64,000 nucleotides of DNA from a virus, in IMG/VR virus record IMGVR_UViG_3300003323_000851, positions 1 through 64,000 of that record, one strand, 5' to 3'. This document shows positions 629 through 57,665 of this stretch, piece after piece. The stretch's first letter is position 1. Every line of letters begins with the position of its first letter. A program made the position numbers and the translations under genes. The notes under the pieces were generated by a model, which saw only the letters and a program-made list of their open reading frames with translations, did not search any database and had not been told where the DNA came from.

Positions 629-744
629 GAAGCGAACGCACATAGGTAGTGCCGGAGTAATTACCGCCGTGGGTTTCAAAGCCTGCTACTCAGCAATGAG
701 TACAGTTGGTCTGGGTGCAGGTTCGAGTCCTGCTCGCTTCGCCA
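629..744 (+). tRNA. tRNA-like gene, non-canonical length (116 nt), encoded CCA, isotype unassigned
   Basis: Perfect 7-bp acceptor stem: GAAGCGA 629-635 with TCGCTTC 734-740. D-arm GCAC-ATAGGTA-GTGC at 638-652. T-arm GCAGG-TTCGAGT-CCTGC at 717-733. G73 followed by CCA at 741-744. The 63 nt between the D and T arms do not fold as one 17-nt anticodon arm. Confidence 0.5.
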
Positions 745-3465: not shown

Positions 3466-3876
3466 TTATTCCATACTGACCACCCGTGCGCGCTCTTTGA
3501 TGGGTATAACAAGTAGTATAGTAGTAAGTGCGGCGCCGATCAGCAAACTGTAATATGTCCAGTAGGAACTTTTGTAGTTCCACCAGAACATCCACAGGTC
3601 AGCAAGATGAAAGAAAAACCACTGTGTAACTATCATAAAGAGCCGCTTTGAATACTTGCCAGAAAGCCACGCTGCAAAGAAGTAGGTAAAGATTAATAAC
3701 ACATCATCAAAGCTCATCTTTAAATACCATTGGATGGTGAGCATCCTTTTGTATATAGCAGAAAAGAATAAGTCCAGCTCCTGCAAAGCAATAGCCGGAC
3801 TTATCAGTGAATGAATTTCTGTCGCTACATGAAATAGCCACAGAGCAATAGCAATAACGGTTACTTTAGCCCTCAT
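3466..3876 (-). CDS. polytopic membrane protein (about 4 TM segments)
   Basis: 136 aa with several hydrophobic stretches rich in W and F. It is the last gene of the long minus-strand operon. Confidence 0.6.
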   Translation of the reverse strand: MRAKVTVIAIALWLFHVATEIHSLISPAIALQELDLFFSAIYKRMLTIQWYLKMSFDDVLLIFTYFFAAWLSGKYSKRLFMIVTQWFFFHLADLWMFWWNYKSSYWTYYSLLIGAALTTILLVIPIKERARVVSME

Positions 3877-4037
3877 GGTTTCGGCGGGCCGGGCGGCGGC
3901 GGTGGCGTTCCACCGGGATTAGAACTATCGTCACCATCGTCCTGTGCCGATATGTCAGACGGATCTATTTCCCGAATCAATTTATTGATCTCGCGGCGCC
4001 ACCTTTTAAGCTGCTTTACTATTTCCTCGTTGGTCAT
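3873..4037 (-). CDS. small hypothetical protein with Pro-rich tail
   Basis: 54 aa, below the ORF-track cutoff and read by hand: MTNEEIVKQLKRWRREINKL...GGTPPPPPGPPKP. ATGA overlap with the next gene. Confidence 0.4.
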   Translation of the reverse strand: MTNEEIVKQLKRWRREINKLIREIDPSDISAQDDGDDSSNPGGTPPPPPGPPKP

Positions 4038-4305
4038 TGCGTTTTATTTTTCGGTTTTGATAACGCTTTTTGAATCTCTGCCATTTTGGTTTTAGCCAGT
4101 ACTTCCACGCATCGTGAGCTATTACCGTAGCCAGACCAGAGGCAAAGGCTAATACACTCGTTGCGAACAACTTGGCAAAGAAAATGAATACTACATTCCC
4201 CTTAGCAAAAGAAGACCCAAAAAGAAAAGTAAAGCCTGCAATAGCCCCTGGTACAAATCCCCGGAAGAAAATTTTAATTTTTTCAGCCACGAAGAACTTC
4301 CACAT
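4006..4305 (-). CDS. small membrane protein with basic C-terminus (holin-like architecture)
   Basis: 99 aa with 2-3 TM segments, then KPKWQRFKKRYQNRKIKRNDQR. Confidence 0.55.
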   Translation of the reverse strand: MWKFFVAEKIKIFFRGFVPGAIAGFTFLFGSSFAKGNVVFIFFAKLFATSVLAFASGLATVIAHDAWKYWLKPKWQRFKKRYQNRKIKRNDQRGNSKAA

Positions 4306-4397
4306 GTTTTTGTGTAGGTTTTATAAGCCATGAACAATAGTGTTGTGGAGTTGCTAATCCCAGTTAAAAATAATACTATCATGGCGGTAATTGCAAT

Positions 4398-4700
4398 TTA
4401 TTTGCCGTCTTTCACCGGTGGAATGTTCACATCAATCTGGGCCTGTTGTTCCGCGGGCAGGTTTGACACGTAGTTATCATCCGTATCAACCAGCATCATG
4501 CCGATAAACTTCACGACAGCCACCAAGGCCACGTTGATTATCAGTGTGAGACGGACGGCTTTAAGCTCATCCTCGAACCCCCATGTCTGTATGATCGCCA
4601 CGGCGGCAGGAATCAGAACGATGAGTAAACCGCGCTCCAGGTTGCGCCACCATTTGGGAGCCGGCCTTGCGGCGCCGGCAGCCGATATTCTTGTTGCCAT
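4398..4700 (-). CDS. small membrane protein (2 TM segments)
   Basis: 100 aa. LLIVLIPAAVAIIQTW and LTLIINVALVAVVKFIGMML are hydrophobic spans. Confidence 0.55.
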   Translation of the reverse strand: MATRISAAGAARPAPKWWRNLERGLLIVLIPAAVAIIQTWGFEDELKAVRLTLIINVALVAVVKFIGMMLVDTDDNYVSNLPAEQQAQIDVNIPPVKDGK

Positions 4701-6186: not shown

Positions 6187-9100
6187 CTATTTAAACCTGA
6201 TCGTCCGGCCCCGGATCACAGGGTTCGTCGGCAGATCGTTTTTTAAAGATACGAGAATATAGGCAGGCATTTCGGTAACAGTCGGAATAGTTACCGTTCC
6301 GTTTGTCACCGTCAGTGGCGTGCTCACCCCGTCTTCATCGCCGTTGGCCCATGTGATCAGGGTTGCCGATTCGGCATTGCCGACTGTCACGACCTGGTTG
6401 GAGGTGGTAGAGCCGTTGTAAGTGCCGCGCCAGATGGTGTAGGCTTTCTTCAGTCGGTCCGTGTTGTGATCACGGCGGACCAGGGTCACGCCGGTAGAAT
6501 CGCCGTCAAGGATTGTAGAGCTCCATGCCTTATAATTCCACAGGGTATTGACCCGTGTGGCATAGGCGTACCAGACCGGTCTGCGGTAATACTCACTTAC
6601 CGGGAACGCGAATTTAAAGGTTACCATGCTCATACCCCCGAAGTTGCCGGAGCCGTCAGAGGTGTGCTTGTAATGGTAGACAGTCGAAACGCTATTAGGT
6701 ACACGGGCCGCTTGTTCCAGTGTCCGGATCTGCATGTAGGCGGCTACGGCACTATCCGGGAAACCGGTTACCGCAAACACCTGGTAAGGCGATGTTGTGG
6801 TGCTGAAGCCGATCTCCGTCCACTTCATGTCTTTGCCAGGGAAAACCCTGTCGCGGAATTTAGCGAATAGATCCATCCTGCGCTTAACCTGAAATTGCTC
6901 AGGGCTCACCGCTTGGGCCGTTACGTTCTGTGGCTGGCCATCGTAGTAGGTAGACTGGTACATATTGAAGCAAAGGCCCTGAATTTCATCGTTTATCTTG
7001 CTACCTGTACGGAAAAACGATACAATCTTATAGCCTTTCCATTTCATGGTGTCGGCCGAGTAAGTGGCACCAAGATAAACCAGCATGTCAGGATCAACCA
7101 GATGCACCGTGTCCCAAATGCTGCGCGACCGTGCCCAAATATCCTCCGGGTGGTGATGACGCCTGCCAAAGGTGGGCGTGCCTACAAAATCCGCGTCCCA
7201 TTCGTTCTCGTTCTCCAGTATCTTGATCTTCTTCTGCCCGGCGGTGCGATCGGCACCAAACTGTGAACCAATTACATACCGGTTCAGCGGTGCATTTATA
7301 TTGTTGCCCCACAGCCCGGCCAGTGCGCCAAATACACGTGCCGTGTTCTTTGCCCATTCGGCCGGCTGCGTACTGTCCGATCCCTTCACAATGTCTTTGA
7401 TCAAGTTGAGGTTGGCGATATTCGGCGAATACGAGGAATCGGTTATAGCGGGATCGGCCGGGAAGGAAGCCCCATTGATGTATAGCATCCCCTGCACACC
7501 CAGCCGCTTGTTGAACCGCAACACAGCCTTGTCCATATCACCGTAGGTATCAAGCACCACACGTTGCGCATTGAACGCATCGGTCACCGTGTGATTCCAG
7601 ATGCCGCCATTGGTCGGGTGCCGGAAGGACGGGTAAAGCGGTTTATCGCTCTGCGTTTTAGCATAGGTCGTGTCCATATTGCCAATGTCAGAACCGCCAA
7701 TGTGGTAGATGCCAGGGTCGGGAATGATCGTTGCCGTTTGATTTGGATCAATAATAGTGCTGGCCTTTTGCGCCTGATCCCCGTAAATTTGTATCTCGTA
7801 CATGGACGATGCCGCTGAGTTTACCCGGAACCGCAGGTAGCGAACGGCCTTGGTAATCGTATCGGCATTTCCTGGTACTGTGAACCAATCATTTGTAGGT
7901 AGTATTGCCTGCGTGAACGAGGTGGTCCACACCTGCGTGCGCGTGCTGTCATAAGCCATGACGTCCCATGTCTGGGTGACCAAATTGCTCCCGTGAAACA
8001 TCTTGATCTGCACATTGTTCCACGTGGAATCTTTTAGTTCCACAACGGCATCGATTGGTAGCTCGTAGGAATACACCCCGTTCAGCGTGTCGATCTTCTT
8101 CCGATTTCCCGCCACAAAAAAGTTCTGCATCCGGCCATTCCCCGACCATGGCCAGTAATAATCAGCTGTATTGATCGTTAGCGGATTGGTGCTGGTTGTG
8201 CCGGTCCATTTATACACTTGTACGGTGTCGTCAGCAGTCGCGCCGGCATTGTCTGTTACTACCAGCCTATAGGAGTAGAGACCCGGCGTCAGCCCGGTAA
8301 TATTAGTCACAGCAGAGCTCGGCGAGGCTAAGGTGCCACCGGACGGCCCGGATAGCTTGGTCCAGGCATACGACGCAATCGTGCCGTCCGGATCAGATGA
8401 GCCGCCGCCGTTCAGGATGGTTGAGGTAAACGCGCCGCCGATCACCTGGTTGGCGCCGGCGTTGGCGATGGGCGGCAGGTTGGTGCCTGGCGTCTTGTAA
8501 GCAGTCATGGCCCAGATGAAGCCGTTGGTACTACTATCAGTGCCCACATCATTAAAGAATGCGTTGATATTACCCCTCTGGCTCCATGTATCGAATCCAT
8601 GCGTACCGGTAGGGTTCCACTTCAGGCGTTTGTCCACATTCGGTGTGCCTGGCAGATCACTATATAAAAACGAGCTGAACGAGAACGGGGTCAGGCAGTT
8701 ACCATCACCCCGGTACGACCCGCCACATGGCGCGCTGGTGCAATCAGGGCAGCCGTAATACAAGGAATTTTTAGACAGGGCGGCAGCGGCCTGCAAATCG
8801 CTGTTGTTCGCTACACTGATACCCGACATGCTTAATGTCATGCCCCAGATGTTCCGGTAACTATTGGCCAGCCCAAAAAGGTTTTGCTTGAACGACCACA
8901 TATTTCCTACGCCTGCGCTGACGCCTACGAGCAAGAACTTGGTGTGATCGGCGGTATCAGCAGGCATGTTGCCGAAGACAAACGACATTTCATTGGCATA
9001 TGAGTTATCAAAATAGCCTTGGTCACCGTTGACGATCACGCGGATGCGGCCAGTGCCACCGCCTGGTAGTGGCACAAGTCCGTTCCACCCGGCGTTTACC

Positions 9101-56068: not shown

Positions 56069-56091
56069 GCCCGCTACACAGCGGGCTTTTT
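56069..56091 (+). terminator. intrinsic terminator at the convergence point
   Basis: GCCCGC/GCGGGC stem followed by a T5 run. It overlaps the last codons of the sigma gene. Confidence 0.65.
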
Positions 56092-56553
56092 CATGCCCAG
56101 TAGTTGCTGCAGGATTCCTATAGCCTTCGTCTTTTGATTTCTGGCCGTTTGTTCACTTATTTTCAGCGAGTTTGTAATTTGCCTGGTAGTAAACCCCTTC
56201 AGATACATTTCAAATACCTCCCGGCACCGCAGCGGCAGTTGGGGTAGCCTTTTGTGCAGTTCGGTAATGTACTCTGTGTACATCATGTTGTAATCATCAG
56301 CCTCGTTCTGATCGGGCGGCGGTATTTGCTCGTGGATGCGCCGGTGTATGCCTATAGATCTCAGGTGATCATAGCAAGCATTGCGACAGGTTACGTATAG
56401 GAACGCCTTGGGGTTATCGTGATGCCTTGCATTGTATAGCTTAATAAAGGTCTCTTCCACTATGTCCTCGGCTACATCCTGTTGACCGACTACCCGGCAG
56501 CAGTAGAAGTATAGCGGCTTGTAATAAGCATCCCACCACGGTTTAATATCCAT
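56074..56553 (-). CDS. ECF-type sigma-70 family sigma factor
   Basis: Region 2 DVAEDIVEETFIKLY. Region 4 LPLRCREVFEMYLKGFTTRQITNSLKISEQTARNQKTKAI. Confidence 0.8.
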   Translation of the reverse strand: MDIKPWWDAYYKPLYFYCCRVVGQQDVAEDIVEETFIKLYNARHHDNPKAFLYVTCRNACYDHLRSIGIHRRIHEQIPPPDQNEADDYNMMYTEYITELHKRLPQLPLRCREVFEMYLKGFTTRQITNSLKISEQTARNQKTKAIGILQQLLGMKKPAV

Positions 56554-56635
56554 ACAGATAGGTTTTAAAGCGAAAGCCCTACGTGGATACGCAGGGCCTG
56601 AAAAACCGATTCCATGAAAAAAGACCCGTTAAGTC

Positions 56636-56699
56636 TGGTCGGAAGGACAGGATTCGAACCTGAAGAAGCTGACCCGGAACCATGGATGGCCACCTTCCG
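56636..56699 (-). ncRNA. truncated tRNA-like RNA (64 nt) with encoded CCA
   Basis: Minus strand: CGGAAGG...(T)CAGG-TTCGAAT-CCTG(T)-CCTTCCG-A-CCA. It has a 7-bp acceptor stem and a T-arm, but only 27 nt where the D and anticodon arms should be. A T6 run follows. Confidence 0.45.
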
Positions 56700-56707
56700 A
56701 TAAGAGG

Positions 56708-56845
56708 CCCATGTAGAAACACAGGCCGTACTAATCAAAAAAACGTTTAGCCATTTTACCGATTCCGGTAAAACAGGGCCCCGCATTCTACGCCCCAGAG
56801 CCGTCAGGGCGGTGTCTAAAAACAGATCCCATGTAGAGACACAGG
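56708..56845 (-). repeat. two copies of an 18-nt direct repeat, 120 nt apart
   Basis: Plus strand CCCATGTAGA(A/G)ACACAGG at 56708-56725 and 56828-56845. It forms a hairpin with G-U pairs only as minus-strand RNA. A perfect 8-bp hairpin, TTTTACCG-loop-CGGTAAAA, lies at 56754-56773. Confidence 0.6.
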
Positions 56846-56892
56846 ACGCGGTACCGACACGAGCAACCATTTAAACCTTGCTCTATCCTATG

Positions 56893-56928
56893 AAAAAAGG
56901 CCCTCTACTTTCAACTGCTGCGAGGGCC
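56893..56928 (-). terminator. intrinsic terminator after the 122-nt tRNA-like gene
   Basis: GGCCCTC/GAGGGCC 7-bp stem followed by a T6 run on the minus strand. Confidence 0.7.
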
Positions 56929-56950
56929 AGACAGCAGTTATGTTGATTTG

Positions 56951-57072
56951 TCGGGATGGCAGGACTCGAACCTGCAAAAACGATGTATGGATTTATGCTG
57001 CCATGTCAAGTCTCCGAATCGAACGGTTTGCTACCTCGGTCATCGCTTGTCTACCAATTCCAACACATCCCG
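56951..57072 (-). tRNA. tRNA-like gene, non-canonical length (122 nt), tRNA-Leu-like D-arm, no encoded CCA
   Basis: Minus strand: acceptor CGGGATG/CATCCCG (7 bp). D-arm TTG-GAATTGGTAGA-CAA. T-arm GCAGG-TTCGAGT-CCTGC. A 5-bp stem CGATG/CATCG sits at the anticodon-stem position but encloses 55 nt instead of 7. Confidence 0.5.
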
Positions 57073-57073
57073 G

Positions 57074-57099
57074 TTAAAAGCACCCGTAGAAACGGGCGC
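57074..57099 (-). terminator. hairpin plus T-run just upstream of the tRNA-like gene
   Basis: The minus strand reads GCGCCCGT-TTCT-ACGGGTGC followed by TTTTAA. Confidence 0.45.
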
Positions 57100-57395
57100 T
57101 GTGATTGAACCTTATCCTTTTTTTAAAACACAAGCGGCGGCTACAGTGTCGAACTGCCACGGCTCAACCGGGCCGCCAAAGTACGGGTTAAAAAATATCG
57201 GTTGGATCACGCTGCTGAACCGGCCCACACAACCACTGGCCGATGCGGTAGATCCAGTAGTCTCGCCGTAAGTATTTACTCTTGATCATCGGGATCGGGG
57301 TTTGCATCCTGCTTGGACGCCATGATCCAGCAGAACAGGGTTACTAAAGTTAAGACAATAATCATATCACACGGTTTAAAGCCGTGGATCAGAGG

Positions 57396-57665
57396 TTAGG
57401 CTTTATTATTCTGTCTCTCACCGCACCAAGGGCAATAATTATGCATAAGCGATATTCTTTTATTAATCGACTTCATTAATGTACCATCTTTCTTTCGACG
57501 CTTCAATTTATACTCCAACTCATTATAACTGGCAACTCTTATCGGCGTCGAAAATATAATACCTGTGTTAGATATCTCAACATCATCACCAATCACATCA
57601 TTGGGATGATTCTCTCTAAGCTTAGTGAGACTTTTATCTTTTAGTTCTTTTATACAATTACACAT
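57396..57665 (-). CDS. small zinc-ribbon protein
   Basis: CNC at the N-terminus and CPWC at the C-terminus. A+T-rich. Confidence 0.5.
   Translation of the reverse strand: MCNCIKELKDKSLTKLRENHPNDVIGDDVEISNTGIIFSTPIRVASYNELEYKLKRRKKDGTLMKSINKRISLMHNYCPWCGERQNNKA

Follow-up and report, generated by a model that had tools for sequence, protein, structure and literature searches.

Genes for tRNAs in phage genomes are usually explained by codon supply and, more recently, by escape from tRNA-cleaving immunity. In phage T4, the tRNA region also encodes the stable RNAs rnaC (139 nucleotides, nt) and rnaD (119 nt); T4 species 1 and 2 are matured with tRNAs and, to our knowledge, the question of their function has stood without an answer for about 50 years. 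Here, we analyze a 64,000-nt stretch of viral DNA (positions 1 to 64,000 of IMG/VR record IMGVR_UViG_3300003323_000851, a 64,408-nt contig from a JGI metagenome), hereafter called the window, which carries no normal tRNA, yet holds three tRNA-shaped genes (elements 1-3) that are apparently unable to decode, one of them belonging to a family present on at least 120 viral contigs. We read the three elements as genes for non-decoding tRNA-mimic small RNAs ("tRNA shells") that would serve as decoys or as carriers of cargo. This reading, which we hold with slightly less than even confidence, is supported by its fit to all three elements and to the family data.

Of the described systems, rnaC and rnaD are similar in size to elements 1 and 3 (113-122 nt); in rnaC, a canonical T-arm (CCGGG-TTCGAAT-CCCGG) stands close to the 3' terminus, and the last bases of rnaD are CACCA. 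However, neither shares sequence similarity with the elements, rnaC as we read its sequence has no clear D-arm and only weak acceptor-like pairing, and the two have not been described as a shell-plus-cargo family. In the Bacteroidota-infecting Lak megaphages, tRNAs with "enigmatic introns" were reported, the inserts of which match no Rfam family, while one of them may look like a tRNA (Devoto et al., 2019; PMC6784885). As described, these lengthened genes resemble element 1, the insert of which contains a T-arm-like hairpin, but the Lak tRNAs were reported to be decodable after removal of the insert, whereas most family members and element 2 possess no anticodon. The tRNA-like domain of transfer-messenger RNA (tmRNA), like the elements, consists of acceptor and T-arm with other RNA in place of the anticodon arm and reads no codon; unlike it, elements 1 and 3 have a true D-stem, and the elements show no G3.U70, tag frame or pseudoknot set and are approximately three times shorter. 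In the MALAT1 mascRNA, the murine gammaherpesvirus 68 (MHV68) tRNA-miRNA and engineered tRNA scaffolds, the tRNA fold sets the ends of an RNA, through RNase P, RNase Z and the CCA enzyme, and stabilizes it, as we propose here; in the scaffolds, the cargo takes the place of the anticodon arm. Modules of this type are eukaryotic, viral-eukaryotic or synthetic, whereas the elements described here come from a phage. Finally, YrlA is a non-coding RNA, also present in phages, whose tRNA-like domain (T-arm, D-arm) does not decode, but it is permuted, with its ends on the "anticodon" side and the acceptor closed by a loop, and Rfam gave no such match for the elements. Our literature searches returned no description of a constant shell with diverse conserved interiors beyond the note on Lak phages, and no natural bacterial or phage case with diverse cargo. 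If the RNAs are made and processed, they would represent a natural version of the engineered tRNA scaffold and a new class of phage small RNAs, and might offer a way into the function of T4 species 1 and 2 as well as into the "enigmatic introns" of megaphages; ARAGORN and Rfam at default thresholds miss such genes or label them as ordinary tRNAs.

The features on which the comparison turns are the following.

56951..57072, minus strand: element 1, a 122-nt tRNA-like RNA, read from the sequence and recovered by a strict detector and by ARAGORN in intron mode.
56986..57040, minus strand: interior of element 1, 55 nt, either cargo or an intron plus a split loop.
56636..56699, minus strand: element 2, a mini tRNA-like RNA of 61 nt plus encoded CCA, recognized from the sequence, a partial match to RF00005 and the detector.
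629..744, plus strand: element 3, a 113-nt tRNA-like RNA plus CCA, recognized from a T-loop motif, the detector and ARAGORN in intron mode.

On the minus strand, element 1 is laid out as CGGGATG-UG-UUGGAAUUGGUAGACAA-G-CGAUG-(55 nt)-CAUCG-UUUUU-GCAGG-UUCGAGU-CCUGC-CAUCCCG-A. The acceptor stem comprises 7 base pairs (bp) with no mismatch (CGGGATG/CATCCCG; 5' strand 57072-57066, 3' strand 56958-56952), begins with C1-G72, and is followed by U8 G9 and a D-arm (TTGGAATTGGTAGACAA, 57063-57047) that combines a 3-bp stem with a tRNA-Leu-like loop (A14, A15, G18 G19). At the anticodon-stem position, a 5-bp stem (CGATG/CATCG, 57045-57041 with 56985-56981) encloses exactly 55 nt (57040-56986) instead of a 7-nt anticodon loop. 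A 5-nt variable region (TTTTT, 56980-56976), the final U of which could pair with A15, leads into a canonical T-arm (GCAGG-TTCGAGT-CCTGC, 56975-56959), and A73 lies at 56951. Two hairpins lie in the interior: the T-loop-like CCG-TTCGATT-CGG, and ATGG-N10-CCAT, within which GGCAGCA is found. An initial annotation, made by a model from the letters alone, had described elements 1 and 2, and its acceptors, D-arm, 55-nt enclosed loop, T-arms, A73 and CCA are all present where it had placed them. Its suggestion that the C1-G72 pairs point to tRNA-Pro leads nowhere: the D-arm and the nearest relatives are of Leu type.

Element 2 (56699 to 56636) reads CGGAAGG-(29 nt)-UCAGG-UUCGAAU-CCUGU-CCUUCCG-A-CCA, that is, a 7-bp acceptor (CGGAAGG/CCTTCCG), A73, an encoded CCA and a T-stem of four Watson-Crick pairs plus U.U (TCAGG/CCTGT). 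The linker between the 5' acceptor strand and the T-arm is 29 nt long and too small for an anticodon arm; it may form a D-arm-like hairpin, ATCC-ATGGTTCC-GGGT. RF00005 scores element 2 at 20.8 bits, against a cut-off of 29, and aligns to the acceptor and T-arm only. An analogous 59-nt element, likewise without an anticodon arm, lies at 8533-8591 of a related phage locus (L242).

Element 3, which the initial annotation had overlooked, was found through the third copy of the T-loop motif in the window. It consists of the acceptor GAAGCGA/TCGCTTC, the D-arm GCAC-ATAGGTA-GTGC, a 63-nt interior, a T-arm that is the same as that of element 1 (the two share the 18-nt string TGCAGGTTCGAGTCCTGC), and G73 plus CCA. 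A gene for an AAA-ATPase begins 77 nt downstream of it. The Bacteroidota promoter pattern TTTG-N-TAnnTTTG is not enriched in the window (a single match, 376-410 on the plus strand, with 1.6 expected); this match, TTTG-N23-TAnnTTTG, sits in the intergenic stretch 347-628, between a divergent helix-turn-helix gene and element 3.

All three elements thus have a 7-bp acceptor, a 5-bp T-arm with a TPsiC-type loop (four pairs plus U.U in the T-stem of element 2) and a discriminator, and complete 5' and 3' halves separated by just 29-71 nt, and in none of them is there an anticodon arm with a 5-bp stem, a 7-nt loop, U33 and a purine at 37. Such structures are not expected by chance in the window: the motif GGTTCRANTCC occurs three times in the 64 kb (0.23 expected), and a strict detector, requiring a T-arm followed by a 7-bp acceptor pairing, returned elements 1, 2 and 3 exactly, compared with 0.02 matches expected from 60 Markov-random windows. 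A loose version of the detector yields 1.6 matches per random window; a 45-nt minihelix just upstream of element 1 (57134-57178, minus strand; UGGCGGC ... GGCAG-UUCGACA-CUGU ... GCCGCCG) was recovered by the loose version only, may be a chance match, and is not counted as a further element.

Standard tools did not recognize these genes. ARAGORN at default settings found no tRNA and no tmRNA gene across the window, and Rfam at gathering thresholds gave no match in it; element 1 matched no Rfam family even at E<=10 (56400-57400), and in that region there was likewise no match to Intron_gpI or any other ribozyme model. In its tmRNA mode (-m) with a relaxed threshold, ARAGORN found nothing in the whole window, and on the 1-kb region it made only a spurious permuted call at -ps80; identification of the elements as tmRNA, YrlA or known ribozymes, for which there was no Rfam or ARAGORN support, was rejected. 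No model folds elements 1-3 as standard tRNAs, which bears out the earlier view that neither element 1 nor element 2 is an ordinary decoding tRNA and also answers the Rfam/Infernal check that had been proposed with it. The folding energies of the whole elements 1 and 2 are no better than those of shuffled sequences (z-scores -0.76 and -0.47). What sets them apart is tRNA-specific architecture, not thermodynamic stability.

The initial annotation had also not seen that element 1 stands in a widespread family. We searched with a pattern of Leu-type D-loop, 60-90 nt and T-loop, a gap too long for a normal tRNA-Leu, and defined the family by a 7-bp acceptor, U8, a Leu-type D-arm (NNG-GAATTGGTAGA-CNN), a canonical T-arm, Y48 and a 30-95-nt interior without an anticodon arm; element 1 shows every one of these features. 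The pattern matches at least 120 IMG/VR viral contigs. Among the matches listed, nearly all are built like element 1, with a 7-bp acceptor, U8 G9, the GCGGAAUUGGUAGACGC D-arm, a 55-85-nt interior, a T-arm and usually A73; about a quarter lie inside tRNA arrays and the rest are solitary, all are co-oriented with the neighboring genes, and most do not stand beside sigma genes. RF00005 gives seven family members 33-43 bits despite their length of 110-136 nt. In a set with one genome per bacterial species, the same pattern returned 117 stretches, many of which are genuine long elements, mostly from Bacteroidota, and part of which are artefacts, namely complete tRNA-Leu genes with fragments duplicated in integration events; two long elements occur in metagenome-assembled genomes (MAGs) of Chitinophagaceae.

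Among 179 distinct shells, whose acceptor strands take 122 different sequences, every one of the acceptor pairs forms 85-91% of the time, compared with 41-73% in shuffles, and the pairs take all four Watson-Crick types; U8 G9 is present in 171 of the 179 shells and A73 in 134. These comparisons indicate that the family shell is under selection and that its stems covary. Relatives of element 1 by its scaffold are L170, L152 and L122. In L170 (a Bacteroidia MAG), the T-arm, the 3' trailer ACAAAT and C1-G72 are as in element 1 and the interior is unrelated, and the two acceptors differ by two compensatory pairs (5-68 and 6-67).

The interiors follow a different rule. One exact 49-nt shell (AGUCAGG... 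...CCUGACU) carries at least 83 unrelated interiors of 32-82 nt with a continuous range of lengths, and in the family as a whole interiors span 32-95 nt and are hypervariable between types. Within a type, they are kept: of 159 element pairs whose interiors reach 80% identity or more, 86 show 400-nt flanks that on both sides are no more alike than unrelated sequence, and some pairs with unrelated flanks share interiors that are 98-100% identical. Neutral drift of the interiors was ruled out on this ground, and since each interior type is kept despite unrelated flanks, the interior appears to be selected cargo. Within the sub-families L005/L008/L146, L266/L268, L097/L129 and L242/L244, hairpins and a likely pseudoknot show compensatory changes. 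A 5-bp stem with a YU-NNN-R loop occurs in 3 of 166 viral interiors (3.5 in shuffles); the idea that the interiors are anticodon-loop decoys was dropped at this chance level. The anticodon calls that ARAGORN makes when forced on the family scatter over most amino acids.

If the elements are non-decoding shells, the following course may be envisaged. They keep what the maturation machinery would read, namely a 7-bp acceptor stacked on a canonical T-arm and a discriminator, and elements 1 and 3 additionally retain a D-arm carrying G18 G19, from which formation of the elbow is expected. In place of the anticodon arm there is an unrelated interior (55 nt within a 5-bp stem in element 1, ~63 nt in element 3) or nothing (element 2). 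Transcription would proceed on the leftward strand between leaky hairpin terminators, host RNase P would cut the 5' end, and host 3' trimming and the CCA-adding enzyme would finish the 3' end, giving stable RNAs of ~60-125 nt. These might act by tRNA mimicry, either by drawing off, as decoys or sponges, host proteins that bind the body of a tRNA or as carriers of conserved cargo RNA; as to the target of a decoy, our guess would be tRNA-directed host immunity or toxins. E. coli leucyl-tRNA synthetase (LeuRS) needs A73 and the D/T tertiary core, and neither the anticodon nor a long variable arm; Leu-type shells keep exactly the features that LeuRS requires, and may be leucylated. We further put forward, as a doubtful extension, that the shell is a natural display and processing platform used by phages, especially those of Bacteroidota, for hundreds of conserved cargo RNAs: keeping the LeuRS features (A73, A14, A15-U48, G18 G19), with replacement of what LeuRS does not read, it would be excised, CCA-tailed and possibly leucylated, and would supply a diversifying arsenal of decoys or effectors against host tRNA-directed immunity or translation control, with three such genes in the window. 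Phage tRNA copies counter immune nucleases whose cleavage site is the variable loop of class II tRNA-Tyr (PMC13096335). By analogy with this nuclease precedent, an arms-race origin of the variable region is plausible; the precedent is not evidence for it. As far as sequence comparison can establish them, the architecture, the family membership of element 1, the covariation of the shell, the conservation by cargo type and the lack of anticodon arms across the family are secure.

Several observations weigh against reading the elements as tRNA mimics that carry cargo or act as decoys. The D-loop and T-loop are fixed by the scan pattern, so their conservation is partly built in and is not evidence. 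No gene family is common to the 120 listed loci that could serve as a conserved partner, and an antisense role of the interiors, which would have supplied a target for decoy or cargo, was abandoned, as the interiors show no complementarity to their own loci beyond chance; the window likewise shows no excess of complementarity. The stability of family interiors exceeds that of control DNA only modestly (mean z -0.89 vs. -0.38), and that of element 1 folds no better than shuffles (z +0.9 for the 55 nt, +0.46 with its stem). Family membership applies to element 1 only: elements 2 and 3 lack the Leu-type D-loop, the searches gave no scaffold relative of either, and they share with the family just acceptor and T-arm features, their D-arm being different or absent. 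No locus orthologous to elements 1 and 2 was found in phage records, IMG/VR, JGI metagenomes or protein searches; owing to this, a covariation test on their own stems and interiors is impossible. Finally, the closest scaffold relatives of element 1 include split tRNA-Leu(UAA) genes (L152, L110, L099, L029 and L202), which favors an origin as introns and possibly a function as such. Pattern scans for the interior of element 1 (IMG/VR, JGI metagenomes and the collected relatives) gave no homologue, and exact-pattern scans for element 1 gave nothing in IMG/VR or JGI metagenomes; a motif common to element 1 and L097 (CCGAGGTAGCA) was not recurrent and hence was treated as chance.

These split genes bring up the rival that survives best, although we consider it unlikely: element 1, and perhaps element 3, would be real tRNA genes with a short non-group-I intron in the anticodon loop, element 1 maturing to a 74-nt tRNA with the anticodon CCA. 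In intron mode at its default threshold, ARAGORN calls element 1 tRNA-Trp(CCA) (c[56950,57072]), with a 48-nt intron after nucleotide 32, and element 3 ([629,744]) "tRNA-Arg(CCT)" with a 20-nt intron. The L152 gene of a Sediminibacterium MAG has the same sequence as element 1 throughout nucleotides 8-27, including the D-arm region. It is a clean tRNA-Leu(UAA) in which 24 nt interrupt the loop, C|TTAAAA, between positions 32 and 33, the very site that ARAGORN proposes for element 1. L110, L099, L029 and L202 are likewise split tRNA-Leu(UAA) genes, which reconstitute CTTAAAA and keep normal variable arms, and the inserts of L110 and L202 are homologous with covarying helices; the "enigmatic introns" of the Lak megaphages would be a further parallel. 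On this comparison, the family comprises an intron-like wing and a much larger anticodon-less wing, and element 1 lies between them.

The split-tRNA model meets difficulties in the elements themselves. With the insert removed, the loop of element 1 is AUCCAUA, in which neither A32 nor U37 is normal for a tRNA that decodes, and when all joinings of the ends of the 55-nt loop were enumerated, U33 appeared only in this one; the body is of Leu type without a long variable arm, yet the anticodon would be that of Trp. The call for element 3 leaves a long (25-nt) unpaired variable region, and element 2 is not explained at all. The intron-mode run suggested in the initial annotation did produce calls for elements 1 and 3, but the call for element 1 is forced and neither yields a standard tRNA. 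A group I intron takes ~200 nt or more with a P1-P9 core, far beyond the 48 and 20 nt of these inserts, and no Rfam intron or ribozyme matched. By inspection, there is no bulge-helix-bulge (two 3-nt bulges around a 4-bp helix) at the junction of element 1, where 3-nt bulges beside CGATG/CATCG put GAGG opposite AUCC, unpaired. Our Pfam scan of the window took in 40 open reading frames (ORFs) outside the block at 21.9-33.6 kb (roughly 54 of the 65 ORFs of at least 110 amino acids); among the scanned ORFs, there was no integrase, RtcB, RNA ligase, CCA enzyme or splicing endonuclease, in agreement with the earlier remark that no RtcB or RNA-ligase gene is visible, nor was there a Ro/Rsr gene. Moreover, most family members have no split anticodon loop. 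Of the two possibilities that the initial annotation had left side by side, tRNAs with inserts and tRNA-mimic RNAs, the evidence leans to mimicry (the armless element 2, the abnormal loop of element 1, and 3 of 166 interiors), while the L152, L110, L099 and L202 relatives keep the intron alternative in play.

In L110 (a phage) and L202 (an Acetatifactor MAG, Firmicutes), the homologous inserts are 49-51 nt long, with a covarying outer helix and CCAGUG in both; both also have the hairpin loop GGCAGCA and end in NCCA, and the insertion sites seem to be different (32/33 vs. 34/35).

A second rival is concerned with the surroundings of elements 1 and 2 on the minus strand, where the following features are found.

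57079..57100, minus strand: 9-bp hairpin with loop UUCU, followed by UUUUAA (-16.0 kcal/mol, z -6.3).
56893..56928, minus strand: terminator-like GGCCCUC-N16-GAGGGCC followed by U6, 3' of element 1 (from sequence and fold).
56826..56847, minus strand: repeat copy 1, a G.U-containing hairpin (loop CUCU) followed by CUGUUUUU, terminator-like (from the fold).
56751..56776, minus strand: 11-bp hairpin in the spacer, core UUUUACCG-GAAU-CGGUAAAA (-11.7 kcal/mol, z -4.3).
56706..56727, minus strand: repeat copy 2, a 9-bp hairpin with loop UUCU (-14.2 kcal/mol, z -3.9).
56574..56599, minus strand: 11-bp hairpin followed by UUUCGCUUU, directly before the sigma start codon (-17.7 kcal/mol, z -4.9).
56074..56553, minus strand: gene for an extracytoplasmic function (ECF)-type sigma factor of 159 amino acids (Pfam Sigma70_r2, Sigma70_r4_2), downstream of elements 1 and 2 on the same strand.

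The sigma gene and the position of the elements upstream of it had been recognized in the initial annotation, and Pfam now assigns the protein to the ECF type. The 18-nt direct repeat described there (56708-56725 and 56828-56845) is real, two copies being present with 0.10 expected, and both copies fold better as minus- than as plus-strand RNA (-9.1 vs. -3.3 and -14.2 vs. -8.9 kcal/mol); the spacer hairpin reported at 56754-56773 is present and extends to 11 pairs (56776-56751). What had been called a clean terminator at 56893-56928 does have a 7-bp GC stem, with a 16-nt loop, and U6 behind it, but its fold is no better than that of shuffles (z -0.43), and an overlapping alternative stem, CUGCUG/CAGCAG, is possible. 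The apical sequence GU-UUCU-AC recurs in the hairpins at 57079-57100 and 56706-56727, and 56826-56847 is a third copy of the type, with loop CUCU.

Given this arrangement, the elements could be parts of a cis-acting processing or attenuation leader of the sigma gene, with leaky terminators that would restrict read-through, an RNase P cut 6 nt after a hairpin that would leave the upstream RNA with a protected 3' end and release the mRNA downstream, and the tRNA-like pieces as by-products, in the manner of MALAT1-mascRNA or of mitochondrial tRNA punctuation. A strong 9-bp UUCU-loop hairpin ends exactly 6 nt upstream of the 5' end of element 1 and of element 2 alike, and from 57100 down to 56574, directly before the sigma start codon, five or six strong or terminator-like hairpins follow one another on that strand. 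This series would fit transcription in short units or cascading read-through into the sigma gene, and the spacing of hairpin and N6 would also fit RNase P cleavage with hairpin-protected upstream ends. In the related phages L241 and L243, tRNA(-like) genes adjoin sigma genes, and in L240, L242 and L243, GC-rich hairpins stand 3-10 nt upstream of them. Such a leader nevertheless leaves unexplained the conservation of whole elements and interiors with unrelated flanks, most IMG/VR family members are away from sigma genes, element 3 lies elsewhere in the genome, and terminators are not enriched over shuffles (2 found, 2.0 expected); we regard it as distinctly unlikely. A motif, GGATAAGGTTTAATGGTTA, stands directly 3' of tRNA(-like) genes in related phages (L240 11555, L242 9454, L244 1707 and L241 15965), often followed by GATTAGTG, and may be a phage promoter or a processing signal; past the terminator-like hairpin of element 1, at 56865-56889 (minus strand), AGGATAGAGCAAGGTTTAAATGGTT is a diverged copy of it.

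Least probable of all is that the elements are decaying tRNA pseudogenes, or insertion or recombination scars of former phage tRNA genes without present function: normal tRNAs do occupy the equivalent slots in related phages (L242 has a tRNA-Met immediately before the ATPase gene, and the orthologous pairs of L241 and L243 have differing anticodon regions), many bacterial tRNA-Leu genes carry integration-duplicated fragments, and the interior of element 1 has no significant fold, but neutral decay would not give interiors 98-100% conserved in unrelated contexts, a covarying family shell or three perfect 7-bp acceptors with canonical T-loops (3 strict matches vs. 0.02), and there is no attP or integration scar to be seen, with no integrase among the scanned ORFs and no duplicated D-loop, acceptor or other tRNA fragments near elements 1-3.

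The genome in which the elements reside is that of a tailed phage, with genes for portal, terminase, endolysin, exonuclease, a DnaB-like protein, a DUF3987 helicase-primase and methylases. The two ORFs that overlap the elements (56565..56870 and 56948..57271) gave no Pfam match, in line with their earlier description as spurious-looking. The nearest homologues of the sigma protein are cellular sigma factors of ~50% identity; the one bearing an organism name comes from Paraflavitalea (Chitinophagaceae), and for this reason the host is probably a member of the Bacteroidota. No close relative was found among 5.8 billion proteins, and none in IMG/VR, nor is a contig on record that encodes exactly this product. 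The phage protein is short (159 amino acids, ~205 in cellular homologues) and is weakly similar to Q-type antiterminators (Pfam E 0.0076; PHROG 79 E 1.5e-5). Searches by blastn and megablast against 50,697 phage records gave no nucleotide match, the 89-amino-acid product of the upstream gene had no homologue except itself, and the region at ~57-58 kb was unique to this phage in the searches made. Related phages, with AAA-ATPases 65-77% identical, carry normal tRNAs, long tRNA-like genes and the 59-nt anticodon-less mini element in slots beside the ATPase and sigma genes, none of them orthologous to elements 1-3. Two of their tRNA-like genes, at 11690-11765 of L243 and 16056-16141 of L241, are orthologous to each other, with covarying acceptor and T-stems and differing anticodon regions; one of the pair is called "tRNA-Stop(UUA)" by ARAGORN, and in the other 11 nt are inserted at the anticodon region.

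Further tRNA-Leu-like genes with unusual interiors were seen among the collected loci. In cyanobacteria (L124, L144, L166, L186 and L193, from Trichormus, Prochloron, Aliinostoc and relatives), there is a conserved tRNA-Leu-like gene with an interior of ~82 nt, well below the length of the group I intron known from tRNA-Leu(UAA). In another set, from Dehalococcoidia and others (L131/L208, L127, L070, L171, L232 and L168), the anticodon stem of a tRNA-Leu-like gene runs into a long near-perfect hairpin, which suggests a palindrome inserted into the loop. L099 contains a full-length ROOL RNA (3837-4428, 312 bits) 6 nt upstream of its insert-bearing tRNA-Leu(UAA) (4435-4570), within a phage tRNA array. 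On the 4.2-kb contig of L152, the split tRNA-Leu(UAA) is accompanied by a gene (175-1350) that, judged from its translation, is TnpB/IS605 OrfB-like, and by an apparent tRNA-Tyr(GUA) and another T-arm-like hairpin.

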